64,000 nt of DNA. Origin: an uncultured Acidobacteriota bacterium. Lineage in GTDB: Bacteria; Actinomycetota; Acidimicrobiia; Spongiisociales; ZC4RG35. Both the position numbers and the translations under genes were made by a program. The stretch spans positions 192,389-256,388 of the forward strand of contig CAWILU010000006.1 in assembly GCA_963837055.1 (NCBI GenBank). Reading direction: 5' to 3'. The first letter of the stretch is position 1, and each line of letters opens with the position of its first letter. Shown here piece by piece: positions 323 to 62,384 of the stretch. Under the pieces are notes generated by a model. The model worked only from the letters and a program-made list of their open reading frames with translations. It did no database searches and had not been told where the DNA came from.

Positions 323-2347
323 CTATATCACGAACACGAACAGGACGATCAGGACCAGGGCGCCCCCGACGAACGACGCCGCGTACTGCTGGATCCGGCC
401 CGTCTGCAATCGCCGCAGGGCCGATCCGGCCCCGTCCGCCCCGGCGCCCAGACCATGGATCACGCCGTCGACCCCACGCTGATCGACCACGGCGTAGACG
501 AAAGAGCCCAGACCCTTGGTGAGGAAAGCCACACCGTTGACGAACCCGTCGATCACGTAGTCGTTGACCCAGTTGATGAAGCGGGCCATCGGGCCCATCG
601 TCCCGGCGGTGATCCCATCGGCCAGGTCGTCGACGTAGTACTTGTTGCGCAACAGCGGATAGAGCGCGGGGACCTCGAAGCGGTCCCGCTCCGCCTGAGT
701 CGCCCGGTCCTTGCCCCAGACCATCCACCCCAGGGCGATGCCGAGGAGCGCGGCGAACAGCCCGCTCCCGGCCAGCACCAGATCGATCGCCTCGGCGTGC
801 TCGTCGCCCATTGGGACCACCCGCACCGCCAGCCATTGGCTGAAGTTCCCGATGCCGGGGATCTCCCAGCCGGGGACATTGAAGAACCCGAAGAGGATCG
901 AGGGGATGGCCAGGGCGACCAAGGGCACGGTCATGATGGCGGGGGCCTCGTGGGGGTGGCCGTGTCCCTTGTACTCCCCGTGGAAGGTGAGGGCCACTGC
1001 CCGGGTCATGTAGAAAGCCGTGACGAAGGCGCCGGCGATCGCGATCCACATCACCGCGACATAGCCCTCATGACCGAGGGCAACGAGGATCTCGTCCTTG
1101 GACCAGAACCCGGCCAGGGGCATGATCCCGGCCAGTGAGAGGGAACCGACGACGAAGGTCCAGTAGGTCCGAGGCATCGCCTTGCGCAGACCCCCCATGT
1201 CGCTCATGTTGTTGGAGTGCACGGCGTGGATCACCGCGCCGGCCCCGAGGAAGAGAAGCGCCTTGAAGAATGCGTGGGTGAACAGGTGGAAGAGACCGGC
1301 TGTGTAGCCGCCCGCGGCCACCGCCGTCATCATGTACCCGAGCTGGGAGACGGTTGAATAGGCGAGCACCTTCTTGATGTCGTCGGCTACCAGGGCGAGG
1401 AGACCGACGCCGAAGAGCGTGATCGCCCCGATCGCCACCATCCAGGGCCGGATGTCGAAGGCGAGGTACTCGAAGAGGGGGAACACCCGACCCATCAGAT
1501 AGACCCCGGCAGTGACCATGGTCGCCGCGTGCATCAGCGCCGAGACCGGGGTGGGGCCGGCCATCGCGTCGGGGAGCCAGATGTGGAGGGGGAATTGGGC
1601 GCTCTTGCCCATCGCCCCGAAGAAGAGCAGCGCCCCACCGACGACGGCAACTGCCCCAAGCGGCTCAGAATGCTCGAAGGCAGCCGTGCTCAGGTCGAAG
1701 AAGTCGAACGTGCCGATGGCGAGCCCGAGGATGATCGCCCCCAGGATCAGCCCGACGTCGGCCACCTTGTTGACCATGAACGCCTTGTTGCCTGCGTTCA
1801 CGTTGGCCATGTCCTCCCAGTAGAAACCGATCAGGAAGTAGGAGGCGAGACCGACCCCTTCCCACCCGATGATCAGCTGAATCAGATTGGGGGCGCCCAC
1901 CAGGATCAGCATGGAGCCGGCAAAGAGGGAGAAAGCAGCAAAGAACCAATCGACCCTGATGTCGCCCTTCATATAGCCGACCGCGTAGATGAACACGATC
2001 AGACCGACCACGTTGACCAGGAAGTACATCATGATCGACAGCCCGTCGACGACCCATCCGAGCTCGAAGACGAGATTGCTCCCGATCGAGGCGATCTCGA
2101 AGGTCTTCTGTGCGAGGACACCCTCGGTCATATTCATTACGAACAGGACCGTGGCCCAGACGCTGTTGATGGCGAGAGCCCCGATGGCGATCTCGGCTCC
2201 GTGGTTCTTCATCCTCTTCCCCACGGCGAGGATGAGCAGGAAGGCGACGACGGGAAGGATCAACATGATCCCGGCGGTGTCCACCCAGAACCCGCCGGTC
2301 ACACCGGCCTCGACCACGTGTTCAGCCTCGGTCGCGATCACAATCAC
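323..2347 (-). CDS. nuoL: NADH-quinone oxidoreductase subunit L (operon 1)
   Basis: ORF 323..2470. The body is NuoL/ND5-like ([62 protein letters not shown]). Start trimmed to GTG 2347, which follows GGAGG. The 41 upstream codons are Arg-rich and overlap a repeat element. Confidence 0.85.
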   Translation of the reverse strand: MIVIATEAEHVVEAGVTGGFWVDTAGIMLILPVVAFLLILAVGKRMKNHGAEIAIGALAINSVWATVLFVMNMTEGVLAQKTFEIASIGSNLVFELGWVVDGLSIMMYFLVNVVGLIVFIYAVGYMKGDIRVDWFFAAFSLFAGSMLILVGAPNLIQLIIGWEGVGLASYFLIGFYWEDMANVNAGNKAFMVNKVADVGLILGAIILGLAIGTFDFFDLSTAAFEHSEPLGAVAVVGGALLFFGAMGKSAQFPLHIWLPDAMAGPTPVSALMHAATMVTAGVYLMGRVFPLFEYLAFDIRPWMVAIGAITLFGVGLLALVADDIKKVLAYSTVSQLGYMMTAVAAGGYTAGLFHLFTHAFFKALLFLGAGAVIHAVHSNNMSDMGGLRKAMPRTYWTFVVGSLSLAGIMPLAGFWSKDEILVALGHEGYVAVMWIAIAGAFVTAFYMTRAVALTFHGEYKGHGHPHEAPAIMTVPLVALAIPSILFGFFNVPGWEIPGIGNFSQWLAVRVVPMGDEHAEAIDLVLAGSGLFAALLGIALGWMVWGKDRATQAERDRFEVPALYPLLRNKYYVDDLADGITAGTMGPMARFINWVNDYVIDGFVNGVAFLTKGLGSFVYAVVDQRGVDGVIHGLGAGADGAGSALRRLQTGRIQQYAASFVGGALVLIVLFVFVI

Positions 2348-2373
2348 GATCCGCCTCCGACGAGGCCGAAGCA

Positions 2374-2472
2374 CCGGCCGACCGGCGTCTGTTCGCCCTG
2401 AGGTGTGGTGACGCGATAGGAGGCCCACCTCGCGACATGAGGGTTGCCGAAGGGCGAAGTCGGCCGGCAATC
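2374..2472 (-). repeat. ~100-nt structured intergenic repeat, copy 2 (nuoK-nuoL spacer, inverted relative to copy 1)
   Basis: The reverse complement reads gattgccggccgacttcgcccttcggc...agggcgaacagacgccggtcggccgg. Both ~27-nt termini nearly match copy 1 at 4859..4958, and the ~45-nt centre differs. Confidence 0.7.
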
Positions 2473-2486
2473 AAACACAGCCATCT

Positions 2487-2792
2487 CTACCACCGCATCA
2501 GATTGAGCTCGTCGACGTTTGCAGACTTCCGATTGCGGAAGATCATCAGGACGATGGCCAGCCCGATTCCCACCTCGGCCGCGGCCACCGTGATGATGAA
2601 AACCGTGAAGACCTGGCCGATGGCATCGGGAGTTCTGAGGACCGCCTCGAAGGCGATCAAATTGATATTGACCGCGGCCAGCATCAGTTCCACCGAGAGC
2701 AGGATCAGCACGATGTTGCGCCGGACGAGCAGGCCGTAGATGCCGAGGGAGAACATCGCCGCCGCCAGGATCAGGAACTGGTTGAGCAGCAT
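2487..2792 (-). CDS. nuoK: NADH-quinone oxidoreductase subunit K (operon 1)
   Basis: 101 aa with 3 TM segments, NuoK/ND4L-like (LSVELMLAAVNINLIAF, AAAEVGIGLAIVL). Its ATG overlaps the nuoJ stop by 1 nt. Confidence 0.9.
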   Translation of the reverse strand: MLLNQFLILAAAMFSLGIYGLLVRRNIVLILLSVELMLAAVNINLIAFEAVLRTPDAIGQVFTVFIITVAAAEVGIGLAIVLMIFRNRKSANVDELNLMRW

Positions 2793-3343
2793 CAGACCGC
2801 CCCCCGCTCTTCTTCCTCGAGGGGGCTCAGGTCACGGCGGGCGATGGTGATCCCGCCGACGAGCGCAGCGAGGAGGACGAAGGACACCACCTCGAAGGGG
2901 ATCACGAACCGCCCCAAGAGTGAAAGCCCGAGCACCTCGGTCGAGGTTGCCTCACCGAGCCCCACGATCTCTGTTGATCCGAAAGCATCGATCGAAGCCC
3001 AGGAGAGGAGCACGAAGGTTGTTGCGGAGAGGATCGCTGGCCACACGTTGTTCGGCGTGTCCAGCCCGACGTCCTTCCCGGTTGGAGCCCGGGTGATCAT
3101 GATCCCGAAGAGGAAGAGAACCAAGACTGCGCCGATGTAGACCAATACGAGGACCCATGCGACGAACTCGGCGGAGAGCATCAGAAACAAGATGGCGGTG
3201 CCACCGAGGGCGCCGATCAGGAAAAGGGCGGCGTGGACCACGTTCTTGGCGGTCACCACCTTGATCGAGGAGAACAGGGTCAGGCCCCCTACCACGACGA
3301 AAACCCAGTTGATGGGTGCCGCGATCCAGTCACCCAAACTCAC
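2792..3343 (-). CDS. nuoJ: NADH-quinone oxidoreductase subunit J (operon 1)
   Basis: 183-aa hydrophobic NuoJ/ND6-like protein in the conserved position. GTGA overlap with the nuoI stop. Confidence 0.8.
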
Positions 3344-3840
3344 TTCTCAAGCTCCGGATCCGCCGGCACCGTCTCCAGCCAGTCCTGAAGCCGGTCCATA
3401 TCGTGGAGCATCTCACCCATCCGGGTCTCCGAGTACTCGTACTCGGGCGACCAGAACAGTGCGTCGAAGGGGCAGACCTCGACACAGATACCGCAGTACA
3501 TGCATAGGGCGTAGTCGATGTCGAACCGGTCGAGGGTGTTGCGAACCTTGATCCGGCCGCCGGGCTTGTCCGGCGCCTTCTCCTCCTTGTGCCCCTCGAT
3601 GTAGATGCACCAGTCGGGGCAGTTGCGAGCGCAGAGCATGCACACCGTGCACGCCTCCTGGTCGAGGGCGATCACCCCACGGGCCCGGGGCACCGGGGTC
3701 TCCTTGACCTTGGGGTAATTGACCGTGGCCAGGTACTTCCCAGGGCGGAAGATGGTCCGAAACATCGTGTAGATGGTCACCCAAAGCCCTTTGGCCATTC
3801 CCATGCCCGGCAACACGCGACGGTTGTTGGTCGTGGTCAC
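3340..3840 (-). CDS. nuoI: NADH-quinone oxidoreductase subunit I (operon 1)
   Basis: Two CxxCxxCxxxCP motifs ([24 protein letters not shown]). Start set at GTG 3840, which forms GTGA with the nuoH stop. ATG 3804 is an alternative start. Confidence 0.85.
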
Positions 3841-4844
3841 AGGTACACCTTGAAGGCCCCGGTGAGGATGATGTTGGCCAGGGCCAGGGGGATGAGCCAT
3901 TTCCAGGCCAGATTCTGCAATTGGTCCTCACGGAACCGGGGGAAGGTCCAGCGAAACCAGATCATCGCAAAGACGAGTAGGAAGGTCTTGCCGAGGACGA
4001 TGACCGGGCCGGCATAGGCGAGGGCGTCCTCGGGGATGCCTGGCAGCCAGTACCCGCCGAGGAAGAGGGTGACTGCGATCGCCGAGAGGGAGAACATGTT
4101 GGCGAATTCGGCCAGGAAGAAGAAGAGGAAGCGGAAGCCCGAGTACTCCGTCAAATACCCCATGACCAGTTCCGACTCGGCGATTGGCATGTCGAAGGGA
4201 ATCCGGCTCAGCTCGGCGAGGGCGGCGATCATGAACACCCCGAAGCCGATGAATTGGAGGATCACGTATGGGTACCCGGCCGAGATCTGGGCCTCCACGA
4301 TCCCGCTCATGCTCATCGTCCCGGCGAGGATGACCGACCCGATTACGGCCAGCACGAGCGGCAACTCATACGCGATCAGCTGCCCGGCCGCGCGCAGCCC
4401 GCCCATCAAGGAGTACTTGTTCCCAGAAGACCACCCAGCCATGAGGATGCCGACGGTGCTCAACGACGAGATGGCGAGGGCGAAGAAGATTCCGACCGAC
4501 AGATCCCGAAAGATCAGGTCCGGGCCGAATGGGATGACCACGAGCAGGGCGACCGTGCTCACCAGAACCAACACCGGTGCGAGCTTGAATACCGGGCGGT
4601 CGGCTTCGTCCGGGACCAGGTCCTCCTTCTGGAAGAACTTGACCCCATCGGCGATGAGCTGCGCCCATCCCCATCGCCCACCGGCGAAATAGGGGCCGAC
4701 CCGGGCCTGCATCTTTGCGGAGAGCTTCATCTCGGCGAAACCGATGACCATCCCGACCAGCGGGATCATCAGAGCGACCAAGAGCAGCTTCCCGGCCAGC
4801 GAGACCCAGAAGTTGGAGAAGAGCTCGGTGACAAACTCGACCAT
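3837..4844 (-). CDS. nuoH: NADH-quinone oxidoreductase subunit H (operon 1)
   Basis: NuoH/ND1 motifs ([46 protein letters not shown]). Start trimmed to ATG 4844 (MVEFVTELF), preceded by AAAGAGG. Confidence 0.85.
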
Positions 4845-4858
4845 CACGGAACCTCTTT

Positions 4859-4958
4859 GATTGCCGGCCGACTTTGCCCTCGGCCCACTCCTGTGCTGAC
4901 CGATTGCAACCGAACTCTCGTCAGACCAGCCGAGGGCAAACAGACGCCGGTCGGCCGG
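4859..4958 (+). repeat. ~100-nt structured intergenic repeat, copy 1 (nuoD-nuoH spacer)
   Basis: gattgccggccgactttgccctcggc...gccgagggcaaacagacgccggtcggccgg. The termini pair with each other: tttgccctcggc/gccgagggcaaa (12 bp) and ccggccgac/gtcggccgg (9 bp). Confidence 0.7.
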
Positions 4959-4995
4959 GGCTGCCGCTCCAAGGAGAGGTTGAGAGTCTGGCAAA

Positions 4996-6186
4996 TCATC
5001 GATCAACATCTCCGAGTACGAAGTCCAGACTTCCCATGATGGCGATGATGTCGGGGACCAGCACGCCCTCCAGGATCCAGGGGAGGATGGAGATGTTGGA
5101 GAAGCTGGCGGAGCGGATCTTGAGCCGGTACGGCCCTTGGTTCCCGTTGGACACGAGGTAATACCCCATCTCCCCCTTTGGGTTCTCCGCTCTGACGTAG
5201 GTCTCTCCCTGCGGGACTTTGATCACCTTGGGCACCTTGGCCTGAAGCGGCCCCGACGGAATGCCGTCGACGGCTTGCTGCACGATCCGGACCGATTGGC
5301 GGATCTCGAGGAGGCGCACATGCCATCGATCCCAGCAATCCCCGTTCTCCCCGACCGGGATCTCGAAATCGAACAAGTGGTACGGCAGGTAGTTCTCGAC
5401 CTTGCGAAGGTCGAAACCGACCCCTGAGGCGCGGAGATTCGGACCCGATACGCCGTAGGCAGCGGCCACCTCGGCGGGCAGGACCCCGACGCCCTTCGTG
5501 CGGGCCAGGATGATCTCGTTGTCGGCGACCAGCTGCTCGAGCTCATCGACCGCCTCCAGCACCTTGTCCATCGCCTCCCGGGTCTGGGCGAGGAAGCCGG
5601 CCGGCAAGTCCTGGATGACTTTCCGGGTACTCGAGCCAGACCCGTACGCGGGCTTGACTCCACCGATCCGGTTGAAGTTGGGGTGGAACCGGCCCCCGGT
5701 CACACCTTCGAGCAGGTCGAGCACTCGCTCCCTCTCCCTGAGGGCGAAGAAGAGAGGGGTAGCCGCACCCAATTCGAGCGGATAGGAGGCCATGAAGATG
5801 AGATGCGAGGAGATGCGGGCCATCTCGGTGAGGATCAGCCTGATGTACTGCGCCCTCTCCGGCACCTCGAGGCCGAGCAGCTTCTCCGCAGCGACGACGA
5901 ATGGGATCTCGTTCGCATAACCCGACACCCAGTCGATCCGGTTGACCAGGGTCGTGATCTGGGGGTAGGTCCGCACCTCGGAGAGCTTCTCGTACCCGCG
6001 ATGCATGTACCCGATCACAGGCTGGATGTCGAAGGCCCGCTCACCGTCGACCCGGGCCACGAGCCGGAGGACACCATGGGTGGACGGATGCTGGGGGCCG
6101 ATGTTGAGCGTCATGTCCTCGGTCTCGAGCTCCACCGAGACCGAGGACTCGGAGAGATGGCGAACCAGGTCCTGATCTAAGACCAC
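4996..6186 (-). CDS. nuoD: NADH-quinone oxidoreductase subunit D (operon 1)
   Basis: NIGPQHPSTHGVLRL and a C-terminal ...IMGSLDFVLGDVDR, typical of NuoD/49-kDa subunits. Start set at GTG 6186, just after the nuoC stop. Confidence 0.9.
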   Translation of the reverse strand: MVLDQDLVRHLSESSVSVELETEDMTLNIGPQHPSTHGVLRLVARVDGERAFDIQPVIGYMHRGYEKLSEVRTYPQITTLVNRIDWVSGYANEIPFVVAAEKLLGLEVPERAQYIRLILTEMARISSHLIFMASYPLELGAATPLFFALRERERVLDLLEGVTGGRFHPNFNRIGGVKPAYGSGSSTRKVIQDLPAGFLAQTREAMDKVLEAVDELEQLVADNEIILARTKGVGVLPAEVAAAYGVSGPNLRASGVGFDLRKVENYLPYHLFDFEIPVGENGDCWDRWHVRLLEIRQSVRIVQQAVDGIPSGPLQAKVPKVIKVPQGETYVRAENPKGEMGYYLVSNGNQGPYRLKIRSASFSNISILPWILEGVLVPDIIAIMGSLDFVLGDVDR

Positions 6187-61351: not shown

Positions 61352-62056
61352 ATGCCCGGGAAGAAGCACTGGCTGTCTCTGCTGCTCGTCGCCTTCGCCT
61401 CGACGGCCATTGGCCTGGCCGCGGCAGCTGACTCGGGGACGGAGAGCGCCTTCGTATCCCTGATCAACTCCACGCGTGCCAACAATGGAATGGCCCCCCT
61501 TCAGGTGGACGGTGGGCTCCAGGGACATGCCCGCAACCACACCCAGGACATGATCGCCTCTGGTGGGATCTACCACTCCAGCTCGGCTGAGCTCTCAGCG
61601 GCCGCGGGGAGTGGCTGGTCGAGGGTCGGGGAGAACGTCGGCAACGGCCAAACCCCAGAGACACTGCACAGCGCTTTCATGAATTCCTCGGGGCACGCCG
61701 CCAACATCCTCGGCGACTACAACTACGTAGGCGTCGGCACCGGAAACAGCGCCGACGGGTCGCTCTGGGTAACGGTCGTCTTCATGAAGAAGGGCGAGAC
61801 GGCGCCGCCCACGACAGCGGCGCCGCCGCCGACTGAGGCGCCCGCTCCGCCCCCACCGTCGGACTCACCCGCTCCCACCAACCCACCCTCCGGTGAAGCG
61901 GTCCCCTCCGCTCCGGCGTCGACCACGACTTCGACAACGACCACGACGCTGGCTCCCACCACGACCACGACCATGATCGTGCCGCCGGACAAGGCGGTGG
62001 CCCCGGGCCAGTCGTGCATCGAGGCAACCCGGTTCGCCCAGCTCTGCCACGACTGA
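61352..62056 (+). CDS. Secreted CAP/SCP/PR1-like domain protein with Pro/Thr-rich C-terminal region
   Basis: Signal peptide. FVSLINSTRANNGMAPL, GENVGNG, SSGHAANILGDYNYVGVG, then a PT-rich linker and a Cys pair. Confidence 0.75.
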   Translation: MPGKKHWLSLLLVAFASTAIGLAAAADSGTESAFVSLINSTRANNGMAPLQVDGGLQGHARNHTQDMIASGGIYHSSSAELSAAAGSGWSRVGENVGNGQTPETLHSAFMNSSGHAANILGDYNYVGVGTGNSADGSLWVTVVFMKKGETAPPTTAAPPPTEAPAPPPPSDSPAPTNPPSGEAVPSAPASTTTSTTTTTLAPTTTTTMIVPPDKAVAPGQSCIEATRFAQLCHD

Positions 62057-62058
62057 GT

Positions 62059-62119
62059 TTCGAGTTCTGGGTGGTGAGTGTTGGGTTTGGACTCACCATT
62101 CACCACTCACCACCCAAGA
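62059..62119 (+). repeat. Intergenic repeat/hairpin after the CAP-domain gene
   Basis: CGAGTTCTGGG ... a perfect 13-bp inverted repeat tgggtggtgagtg (62067..62079) / cactcaccaccca (62103..62115) ... CACCACCCAAGAC. Both end motifs are shared with 30807..30862. Confidence 0.6.
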
Positions 62120-62384
62120 CTCATACACAAACGCCCGAGTGACCTACCTGAGCCTCCTCCGCACTTCCCCGAACGGACGGTGCTCTGATCTGCCTCTCGG
62201 GCGTTCGCAATACCGAATGTAGGACCCGGCTGAGCGCGAGGCAACGACCTTGACCTGATCGTCGTCTATCGCTACCGAACGTAAGCTTGTGACAAATGGG
62301 CGGCCAGTCCGGTCCGGAGAGGGGTTACCAACAGGAATCCCGGGTTTCCACAGGGTTTGTCCACACGGCTTTGTTCACAAGTTT

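Follow-up and report, generated by a model that had tools for sequence, protein, structure and literature searches.

Two spacers of the nuo operon in a 64,000-nt stretch of DNA from an uncultured member of the Acidimicrobiia (G000:C6:192389-256388; hereafter, the window) each contain one copy of a short structured repeat. Copy 1 (core at 4859..4958, plus strand) lies between nuoD and nuoH, and copy 2 (core at 2374..2472, minus strand) lies between nuoK and nuoL. We interpret both sequences as members of a mobile DNA repeat family of one Acidimicrobiia order that is non-coding and non-autonomous, with the nuo copies as passengers, and we give this interpretation a probability of roughly 80%. 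We found that the element inserts into intergenic DNA in either orientation with a target duplication of 7-10 bp, that it is gained and lost between sister species, and that complementarity of its stems is maintained on both strands, without indication of a constraint on a single RNA strand.

An earlier, sequence-only reading of the window had reported one element in opposite orientations in these two spacers, and the sequences at both positions were as it quoted them. Direct comparison of the two copies also showed the near-identical arms and unrelated centres that it described. Based on a repeat search, the arms common to both copies are located at 2365-2416 and 4916-4967 (52 nt, 79% identity) and at 2451-2475 and 4856-4880 (25 nt, 96% identity), and the inner stems differ as TTTGCCC/GGGCAAA versus TTCGCCC/GGGCGAA. 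The same reading likened the repeat to repetitive extragenic palindromes (REP) and MITEs (miniature inverted-repeat transposable elements), a description supported by copy number, folding, covariation and empty orthologous spacers.

We built a family profile from 35 paired-end hits and used nhmmer to search genome G000, a metagenome-assembled genome (MAG) of 2.60 Mb in 7 contigs with 64% G+C and 88% completeness. This search identified 42 full copies and three solo left ends; the core length is near-constant at 97-104 nt, and the core of copy 1 scored 61.8 bits. The sequence-only reading had proposed a genome-wide search for further copies, and there are 42 full copies here and hundreds in relatives. 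A 19-mer from the right arm occurs 43 times in G000, versus 0 times for the reversed control, and its count in 24 congeners ranges from 0 to 77. The full copies and the solo ends in G000 are all intergenic, and they occur in both orientations; neighbouring genes converge in 12-17 cases, run co-directionally beside a sense copy in 11-12 and beside an antisense copy in 9, and diverge in 4. Among 401 genomes of the class, multi-copy presence is limited to the window's family, where it extends over many genera, and to a few other families of the same order; the remaining genomes are at control level. An Rfam 15 scan of positions 2200-5100 at E≤10 returned only two chance-level matches (E=2.1 and 2.8), and a literature search found no description of repeats in Acidimicrobiia. 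One sense copy elsewhere in the genome (G000:C7:293990-294089) lies between apparent rplN and rplX genes, with its tail (GGGAGG) 10 nt before the rplX ATG.

Gain, loss and target duplication

We compared 80 orthologous nuo loci (L006-L085), of which L006 belongs to the sister genome G019 (NuoH 99% identical, nuoL 94% identical at the nucleotide level; flanks of G000 and G019 copies 93% identical). In the sister and in many other relatives, nuoD and nuoH meet in an ATGA overlap, whereas the window has ~144 extra bases at this junction (4848..4991, plus strand). Based on the alignment with L006-L011 and L018 and on a junction table of the 80 loci, this whole inserted segment is absent from the empty ATGA junction of the sister and at least 25 other relatives. 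Because the junction is empty in these genomes, copy 1 is a gain in the window's lineage since its split from the sister. Copy 2 is common to the window and the sister; it is absent from the next closest relatives (L007-L011), in which the nuoK-nuoL gap is 8 nt. Independent copies, in both orientations, occupy the D-H, I-J and K-L spacers of other relatives. The sequence-only reading had allowed that the spacers might prove to be coding in orthologues; in close relatives they are empty instead.

At a number of loci, filled sites are flanked by target duplications. At locus L016 the duplication is CCGATGAG (8/8 positions identical), and at L012 it is CGATGA. Comparison of filled L049 with empty L047 gave ATGATGAGCC/ATGTTGAGCC, comparison of filled L013 with empty L016 gave GGAGAAGTGA/GGAGAAGGAT, and comparison of L031 with L032 gave a duplication of ~10 bp. 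Further duplications were identified at L110 (CGCCCTG) and L111 (CTACTT), and examples within G000 include AGGCTCT, CGCTCTG, CCGAACAG and GGCATAT. We put the target duplication at 7-10 bp; individual sites give 6-10 bp. Words of at least 6 nt are common to the left and right flanks of 12 G000 copies, versus 6.0 ± 2.1 in shuffled pairings.

To follow turnover between the two sister genomes, we fetched all G019 copies and mapped their flanks onto G000. The copies at 25 loci are common to both genomes, at least 10 loci are filled in G019 only, and ~17 G000 copies are without a counterpart among the G019 copies (copy 1 was checked individually). Two G000 sites have a tail and no core, and one of these also has an inverted solo left end.

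At 24 parsed common loci, identity between the two genomes is 94.8% in the arms, 77% in the centre (81.5% in the well-aligned subset), 78% in the tail and 71% in the 15 nt to the left; for comparison, coding flanks are 93% identical, and nuo third codon positions are 76-88% identical, mostly 82-85%. Judged from these alignments, the centre drifts at about the neutral rate, with over-dispersion across common loci (identity 0.57-0.98), and this near-neutral drift accounts for the unrelated look of the centres. Similar centres are found in some K-L and I-J copies of different species, which shows that subfamilies once had one centre. Copy 2 had hinted that the centre is generally constrained; this was rejected on the 77-82% identity over the 24 common loci, which is about neutral.

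Anatomy, folding and covariation

In copy 1, the parts of the element are arranged as follows, all on the plus strand. The left arm consists of an outer-stem strand (P1; CCGGCCGAC, 4864..4872) and an inner-stem strand (P2; TTTGCCCTCGGC, 4873..4884), followed by the variable centre (4885..4928). The right arm begins with the second strand of P2 (GCCGAGGGCAAA, 4929..4940), which the repeat search also delimited and which pairs with the first at 12/12 positions. It continues with an unpaired 9-nt bulge (CAGACGCCG, 4941..4949), the best-conserved segment of the family (columns 37-45 invariant or ≥90%), and ends with the second strand of P1 (GTCGGCCGG, 4950..4958), identified by folding and covariation. 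Across 69 distinct copies, 97.7% of P1 cells are paired. Beyond the right arm lies a conserved 3' tail (GGCTGCCGCTCCAAGGAGAGGTT, 4959..4981), based on anchored information content in 38 copies.

Across the family, the 5' part of the consensus reads ytyTT-GATTG, CCGGCCGAC, TTYGSCC(TC/GA)GGC and c-AACCCTCA-(~30 nt variable)-CAS, and the 3' part, after CAS, reads CC(TC)GGSC-RAA, CAGACGCCG, GTCGGCCGG and GGCTKCCGC-(CGCG or TCCA)-YGG-NRAGG-T. The outer stem has 9 bp and the inner stem (TTYGSCC.../...GGSCRAA) has 7-12 bp. The near-invariant unpaired bulge occurs in the right arm alone, and the whole is an asymmetric quasi-palindrome. The centre is ~45 nt, the tail ~23 nt, the core ~100 nt and the whole insert ~125-145 nt; more distant relatives have a variant of ~122 nt with a longer centre.

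Counted from the ends, the inverted arms begin 5-15 nt in on the left and 9-35 nt in on the right, and the ends that lie beside the target duplications are not complementary. The sequences that the sequence-only reading took for conserved termini are indeed conserved, but as sub-terminal arms; the true ends are offset from them by a few nt to the left and by 9-35 nt to the right. Its unit of ~100 nt was likewise too short, with the conserved ~23-nt 3' tail extending beyond CCGG and the inserted DNA at copy 1 occupying ~4848-4991. We considered the tail as a separate repeat and rejected this, as its motif, taken by itself, shows no enrichment relative to the reversed control and the few solo tails are remnants.

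A minority of copies have an additional inverted left end past the tail, and nested copies and tandem arrays also occur, including a tandem pair in contig C4 of G000. One array (L001 1100-1790; G035:C11:49600-50290) has seven units with a period of ~106 nt and comes from a genome of another family of the order; its two alternating centre types suggest that a dimer was duplicated.

RNA folding of the four strands of the window copies gave -46 to -51 kcal/mol (z -1.8 to -3.5 versus dinucleotide shuffles), so the hairpins are more stable than shuffled sequence; the sequence-only reading had counted a missing stability advantage among the results that would speak against it. The mRNA-sense hairpins of copies 1 and 2 are included in this range, the two values being -50.6 and -46.1 kcal/mol. 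Covariation was analysed in the arms of the 69 distinct copies, drawn from G000 and the 80 orthologous nuo loci. In this set, 94.7% of stem cells are standard pairs, and double-sided changes occur in 11 of 17 stem pairs (104 cells); none of 500 shuffles matched these results on any measure, and slid controls were flat. Part of this covariation reflects inheritance within subfamilies, and the number of cells is therefore not a number of independent events. The inner-stem pair that had been singled out as a compensatory change (T to C, A to G) is T-A 35 times and C-G 30 times.

Mispairs in the stems comprise 18 G.U and 17 A.C, that is, there is no strand asymmetry. Since G.U is no commoner than A.C, complementarity is kept equally on both strands, which points to a constraint at the DNA level or in both orientations and not on one RNA strand. 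The compensatory nature of the change is upheld family-wide; it does not speak for an RNA structure specifically. By eye, the centre had also seemed structured; we dropped this candidate, as 72 centres compared with dinucleotide shuffles gave z=-0.08 (sense) and +0.02 (antisense).

Insertions in the nuo operon

The nuo genes of the window lie on the minus strand in the order nuoA-B-C-D-H-I-J-K-L, and Pfam analysis identified no nuoE, F or G, in agreement with the NuoEFG-less operon described earlier. Upstream of copy 1, nuoD (4996..6186; Complex1_49kDa, 7.8e-85) has its stop codon at 4996-4998; downstream, nuoH (3837..4847; NADHdh, 3e-105, and translation) starts at GTG 4847 or ATG 4844. Copy 2 is flanked by nuoK (2487..2792; Oxidored_q2; stop at 2487-2489) and nuoL (323..2347; Proton_antipo_M/N; start GTG 2347). 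Depending on the nuoH start, the nuoD-nuoH spacer is 148-151 nt, and the nuoK-nuoL spacer is 139 nt; the values given by the sequence-only reading (150 and 139 nt) agree. Copy 1 is antisense and copy 2 is sense to the nuo mRNA.

Each window copy is crossed by an open reading frame (ORF) on the minus strand that starts on the upstream stop codon and ends on the downstream start codon. At copy 1, this bridging ORF (4844..4999; 51 codons plus stop) has an ATG (4999-4997) that overlaps the nuoD TGA as ATGA and a TGA (4846-4844) that overlaps the nuoH start as GTGATG. At copy 2, the bridging ORF (2344..2493; 49 codons plus stop) has a GTG (2493-2491) that overlaps the nuoK TAG as GTGGTAG and a TGA (2346-2344) that overlaps the nuoL GTG as GTGA. 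Under strict overlap rules, 25 of 34 nuo copies have such an ORF, both window copies included, versus 13.1 ± 2.6 expected from shuffling of the spacer interior and 9.6 ± 2.4 from randomising of the frame; orthologous copies inflate this significance.

A bridging ORF follows naturally from a target duplication that contains the ATGA overlap and an insert whose length leaves the frame intact; at L012, for example, element plus duplication amount to 131 nt, with ATG...TGA in frame. Genome-wide in G000, only 2 of 16 co-directional copies have a bridging ORF, both of them in nuo, and among long nuo spacers of the 80 loci that lack this family (other repeats or degenerate copies), 44 of 63 (70%) have one. 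Hence the bridging ORF reflects filtering by the operon and is not a property of the element; its frequency in the spacers without this family suggests a general rule for insertions tolerated in the nuo operons of these bacteria.

Shine-Dalgarno (SD)-like motifs stand just before the downstream starts. The tail of copy 2 (2348..2373, minus strand; 18/26 identical to the sister) holds the nuoL SD GGAGG (complement of 2354-2358), 6 nt before the GTG at 2347. The nuoH SD AAGAGG (4852..4857, minus strand) lies at the left end of copy 1; the sequence-only reading had this copy adjoining the SD, and the motif is even within the DNA brought by the insertion. We infer that translational coupling filters which nuo insertions survive. 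As passengers, the nuo copies would carry a duplicated stop/start target and an open frame that together rebuild the coupled chains nuoD-bridging ORF-nuoH and nuoK-bridging ORF-nuoL, and the SD-like motif just before the downstream start would keep the insertion from being polar.

The same nuo operon contains a third family copy (G000:C6:190952-191050), ~1.4 kb to the left of where the window begins, between the two genes downstream of nuoL and antisense to the operon. The sister genome has two NuoEFG-less nuo operons, on contigs C10 (L006) and C11 (L019), which are 94% and 87% identical to the window nuoL; the third copy is missing in the orthologous operon on C10 and was found in the second, on C11. 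This second operon is either a paralogue or bin contamination (3%).

Repeats of another type also occupy the nuoD-nuoH ATGA junction (~4390-4500 at each locus), namely inverted arrays of tandem 7-8-mers in L020, L025, L026, L030, L036, L037, L051, L065, L066, L069, L070, L077 and L078 (for example, CAATCGT x3 ... GCGTTTT x4, GGAAGTC xN and GTACTGA/GTACCAA). The junction is a hot spot for several repeat families. At three sites elsewhere in G000 (window ~61994-62142, that is, C6:254382-254530; C4:86580-86749; C6:180794-180964), G019 has the hairpin element and G000 has a G/T-rich heptamer palindrome (GGGTGGTGAGTG...CACTCACCACCC), which appears to be of the same heptamer-array type as at the nuoD-nuoH junctions of relatives.

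Mobilising enzyme, alternative explanations and known repeats

Several observations weigh against a mobile DNA repeat, and the first concern its enzyme. Y1_Tnp (PF01797) was found in 0 of 31 genomes of the genus and not in G000 itself, whereas it was detected in six control genomes. Among five high-copy genomes, four (G000, G019, G014 and G011; 38-52 copies each) yielded no transposase of the IS256, IS4/5, ISL3, TnpB, rve or IS110 type, with no match to Transposase_mut, DDE_Tnp_1 or DDE_Tnp_ISL3; PF00872, PF01609, PF01610 and PF07282 were absent from all five, and PF00665 and PF01548 matched only in G005 (two rve and one IS110). These scans covered the listed families, in MAGs, which can lose insertion sequence (IS) elements, and G000 is 88% complete. 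No pair of a left end and a right end 0.13-6 kb apart, as expected of an autonomous copy, was found in G000, G019 or G003. Other features of the copies count on the same side. The ends bounded by target duplications are not mutual inverted repeats and vary by several nt. No two non-orthologous copies have the same centre. A donor for copy 1 was not found, as its best full-length match in the 31 genus genomes is 80% and covers arms only, and its centre had no match elsewhere in G000, in these genomes or, as a 24-mer, in JGI metagenome contigs. Both findings are odd for copy-and-paste by a recently active element. Finally, the nuo copies are 27 sense to 7 antisense (roughly 15-18 to 5-6 as events), and the core of copy 2 is 98/99 identical to its G019 orthologue, versus 82-88% at synonymous or third positions and 18/26 (69%) in its own tail. 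This outlier hints at a constraint on that particular copy; most other common copies are not so conserved.

The three solo left ends of G000 are truncated remnants beside ordinary genes, and the genes between close copy pairs and beside the G035 tandem array are housekeeping genes. The right-arm 19-mer was not found in IMG/VR viral contigs, which gives no indication of a viral origin. The conserved arms and bulge would be the recognition site of a protein, encoded by the host or acting in trans, by which the copies are mobilised or maintained. As a rather unlikely but specific candidate, this could be a single-copy host gene for a kind of enzyme not yet tied to bacterial repeats, which recognises the outer stem and the unpaired CAGACGCCG and inserts the element with a 7-10-bp staggered cut. 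If true, this would be a third kind of repeat-plus-enzyme partnership, beside the pairs of REP with REP-associated Y1 tyrosine transposase (RAYT) and of hairpins with DUF559 nuclease, in genomes that are nearly IS-free. Its mechanism might not copy the centre faithfully, which would explain why each copy has its own centre.

The sense bias of relatives' nuo copies (27:7) and the conservation of copy 2 far above neutral sites would also fit cis-acting RNA elements for nuo mRNA, such as a processing site, a barrier to 3'-5' exonuclease or an attenuator that sets the ratio of NuoA-D, NuoH-K and NuoL-N, with the other copies acting alike. The mRNA-sense hairpins are very stable, three copies split the operon at module boundaries (between nuoD and nuoH, between nuoK and nuoL, and downstream of nuoL), and many copies occupy 3' ends where two genes converge, a placement like that of REP and ERIC; effects of ERIC on mRNA stability have been reported (review PMC3184786). 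However, these junctions lack any spacer in the closest relatives, which makes the element dispensable for nuo expression, and in other relatives unrelated repeats occupy the same junctions. The two window copies are in opposite orientations, G.U mispairs are not in excess over A.C, the centre in general is neither structured nor conserved, and no U-tract/terminator-like or promoter-like signal was found in the copies. In addition, the enrichment of bridging ORFs implies that ribosomes read through the hairpins. We therefore regard such an RNA function as improbable; an effect of hairpins of this stability on mRNA stability or processing is possible as a secondary, putative consequence of insertion.

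Another explanation is that the copies are REPINs (REP doublets forming a hairpin), moved by a RAYT or by a winged helix-turn-helix (wHTH)-DUF559 nuclease. In its favour, the element is ~100 nt long and intergenic, has inverted arms round a less conserved spacer, occurs in tens of copies per genome with numbers that vary greatly between relatives, and takes nested and tandem forms. This explanation is largely refuted, and we attach very little probability to it. Beyond the missing PF01797 in the presence of positive controls, no RAYT gene flanked by repeats was found in the 31 genus genomes, and the element makes target duplications of 7-10 bp, which Y1 HUH transposition is not known to make. 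DUF559 presence is unrelated to copy number (Mann-Whitney p=0.39): neither G000 (43 copies) nor G014 (38 copies) has the nuclease, which is strong in G010, G044 and G023 (0-1 copies), and the ten best DUF559 genes have no element within 1.5 kb.

We give equally little credence to a family of small-RNA genes with a common scaffold and a locus-specific guide or antisense region: the conserved arms round a ~45-nt centre that differs at every locus, the near-constant total length (97-104 nt) and the one copy whose centre is conserved between species would suit it, but the copies have no promoter-like or terminator-like signal, random orientation relative to neighbouring genes, mispairs free of strand bias and no Rfam match, their centres diverge at most common loci as fast as neutral sequence or faster and match nothing else in the genome, and they are gained and lost between sister species with target duplications.

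With the family taken as a mobile DNA repeat, the MITE-type elements Correia/CREE of Neisseria and ERIC of Enterobacteriaceae (reviewed in PMC3184786) offer one comparison. Like these, the family is small (100-150 bp), non-coding, intergenic and multi-copy (42 dispersed intergenic copies of ~100-145 nt), and it forms a long stem-loop. It shares with them direct target duplications and empty/filled differences between close relatives, is often co-transcribed with genes and can supply expression signals. Unlike theirs, its inverted repeats are asymmetric and sub-terminal, one arm having 9 nt inserted, its duplication is of 7-10 bp and not TA, and only its arms are conserved between copies, each centre being different. 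It is also without a parent IS or transposase in the genomes searched: scans for seven transposase families, the end-pair search and IMG/VR yielded no related IS or transposase with the same ends.

REPIN/REP-RAYT systems, which Bertels and Rainey reportedly described in Proteobacteria in 2011, likewise have a hairpin of two inverted conserved arms round a variable spacer, and in this family too the two units form one hairpin with preserved complementarity. The tens of copies and the wide variation in number between relatives are also REPIN-like, and with no autonomous copy a single trans-acting gene would be expected. Unlike REPINs, the family is without Y1/RAYT in the 31 genus genomes and without a GTAG-type 5' motif, and it has target duplications, longer arms and an extra 3' tail.

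Mycobacterial MIRUs (Supply et al. 1997, summarised in PMC3184786) resemble it in their actinobacterial host, in intergenic sites within polycistronic operons, in short flanking direct repeats, empty sites in relatives and tandem arrays, and, as far as the nuo copies go, in an ORF through the element whose ends overlap the flanking stop and start codons. The family differs in that its bridging ORF is found only in nuo copies (2 of 16 co-directional copies in G000) and also in most long nuo spacers without the family, in that both orientations occur, and in direct repeats of 7-10 bp and not 4 bp; nothing suggests sequence homology between the two. The family is best filed as MITE/REPIN-like overall and MIRU-like within nuo; it departs from strict MITEs in its terminal repeats and parent IS, and from REPINs in the RAYT.

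For annotation, the long nuo spacers are then insertions of selfish repeats and not regulatory inventions or missing genes, and the same repeat accounts for dozens of odd intergenic hairpins across an order of uncultured soil Acidimicrobiia. The element makes target duplications and turns over between sister species, yet it lacks terminal inverted repeats and an autonomous copy, and no transposase is recognisable in these genomes, which are almost devoid of IS elements. Presence or absence of copies and tandem copy number are polymorphic markers by which strains of these MAG lineages can be typed. In nuo, one sees how insertions are tolerated by an essential operon with tight coupling: a duplicated stop/start yields a read-through bridging ORF that would restore coupling, likewise for unrelated repeats at the same junctions.

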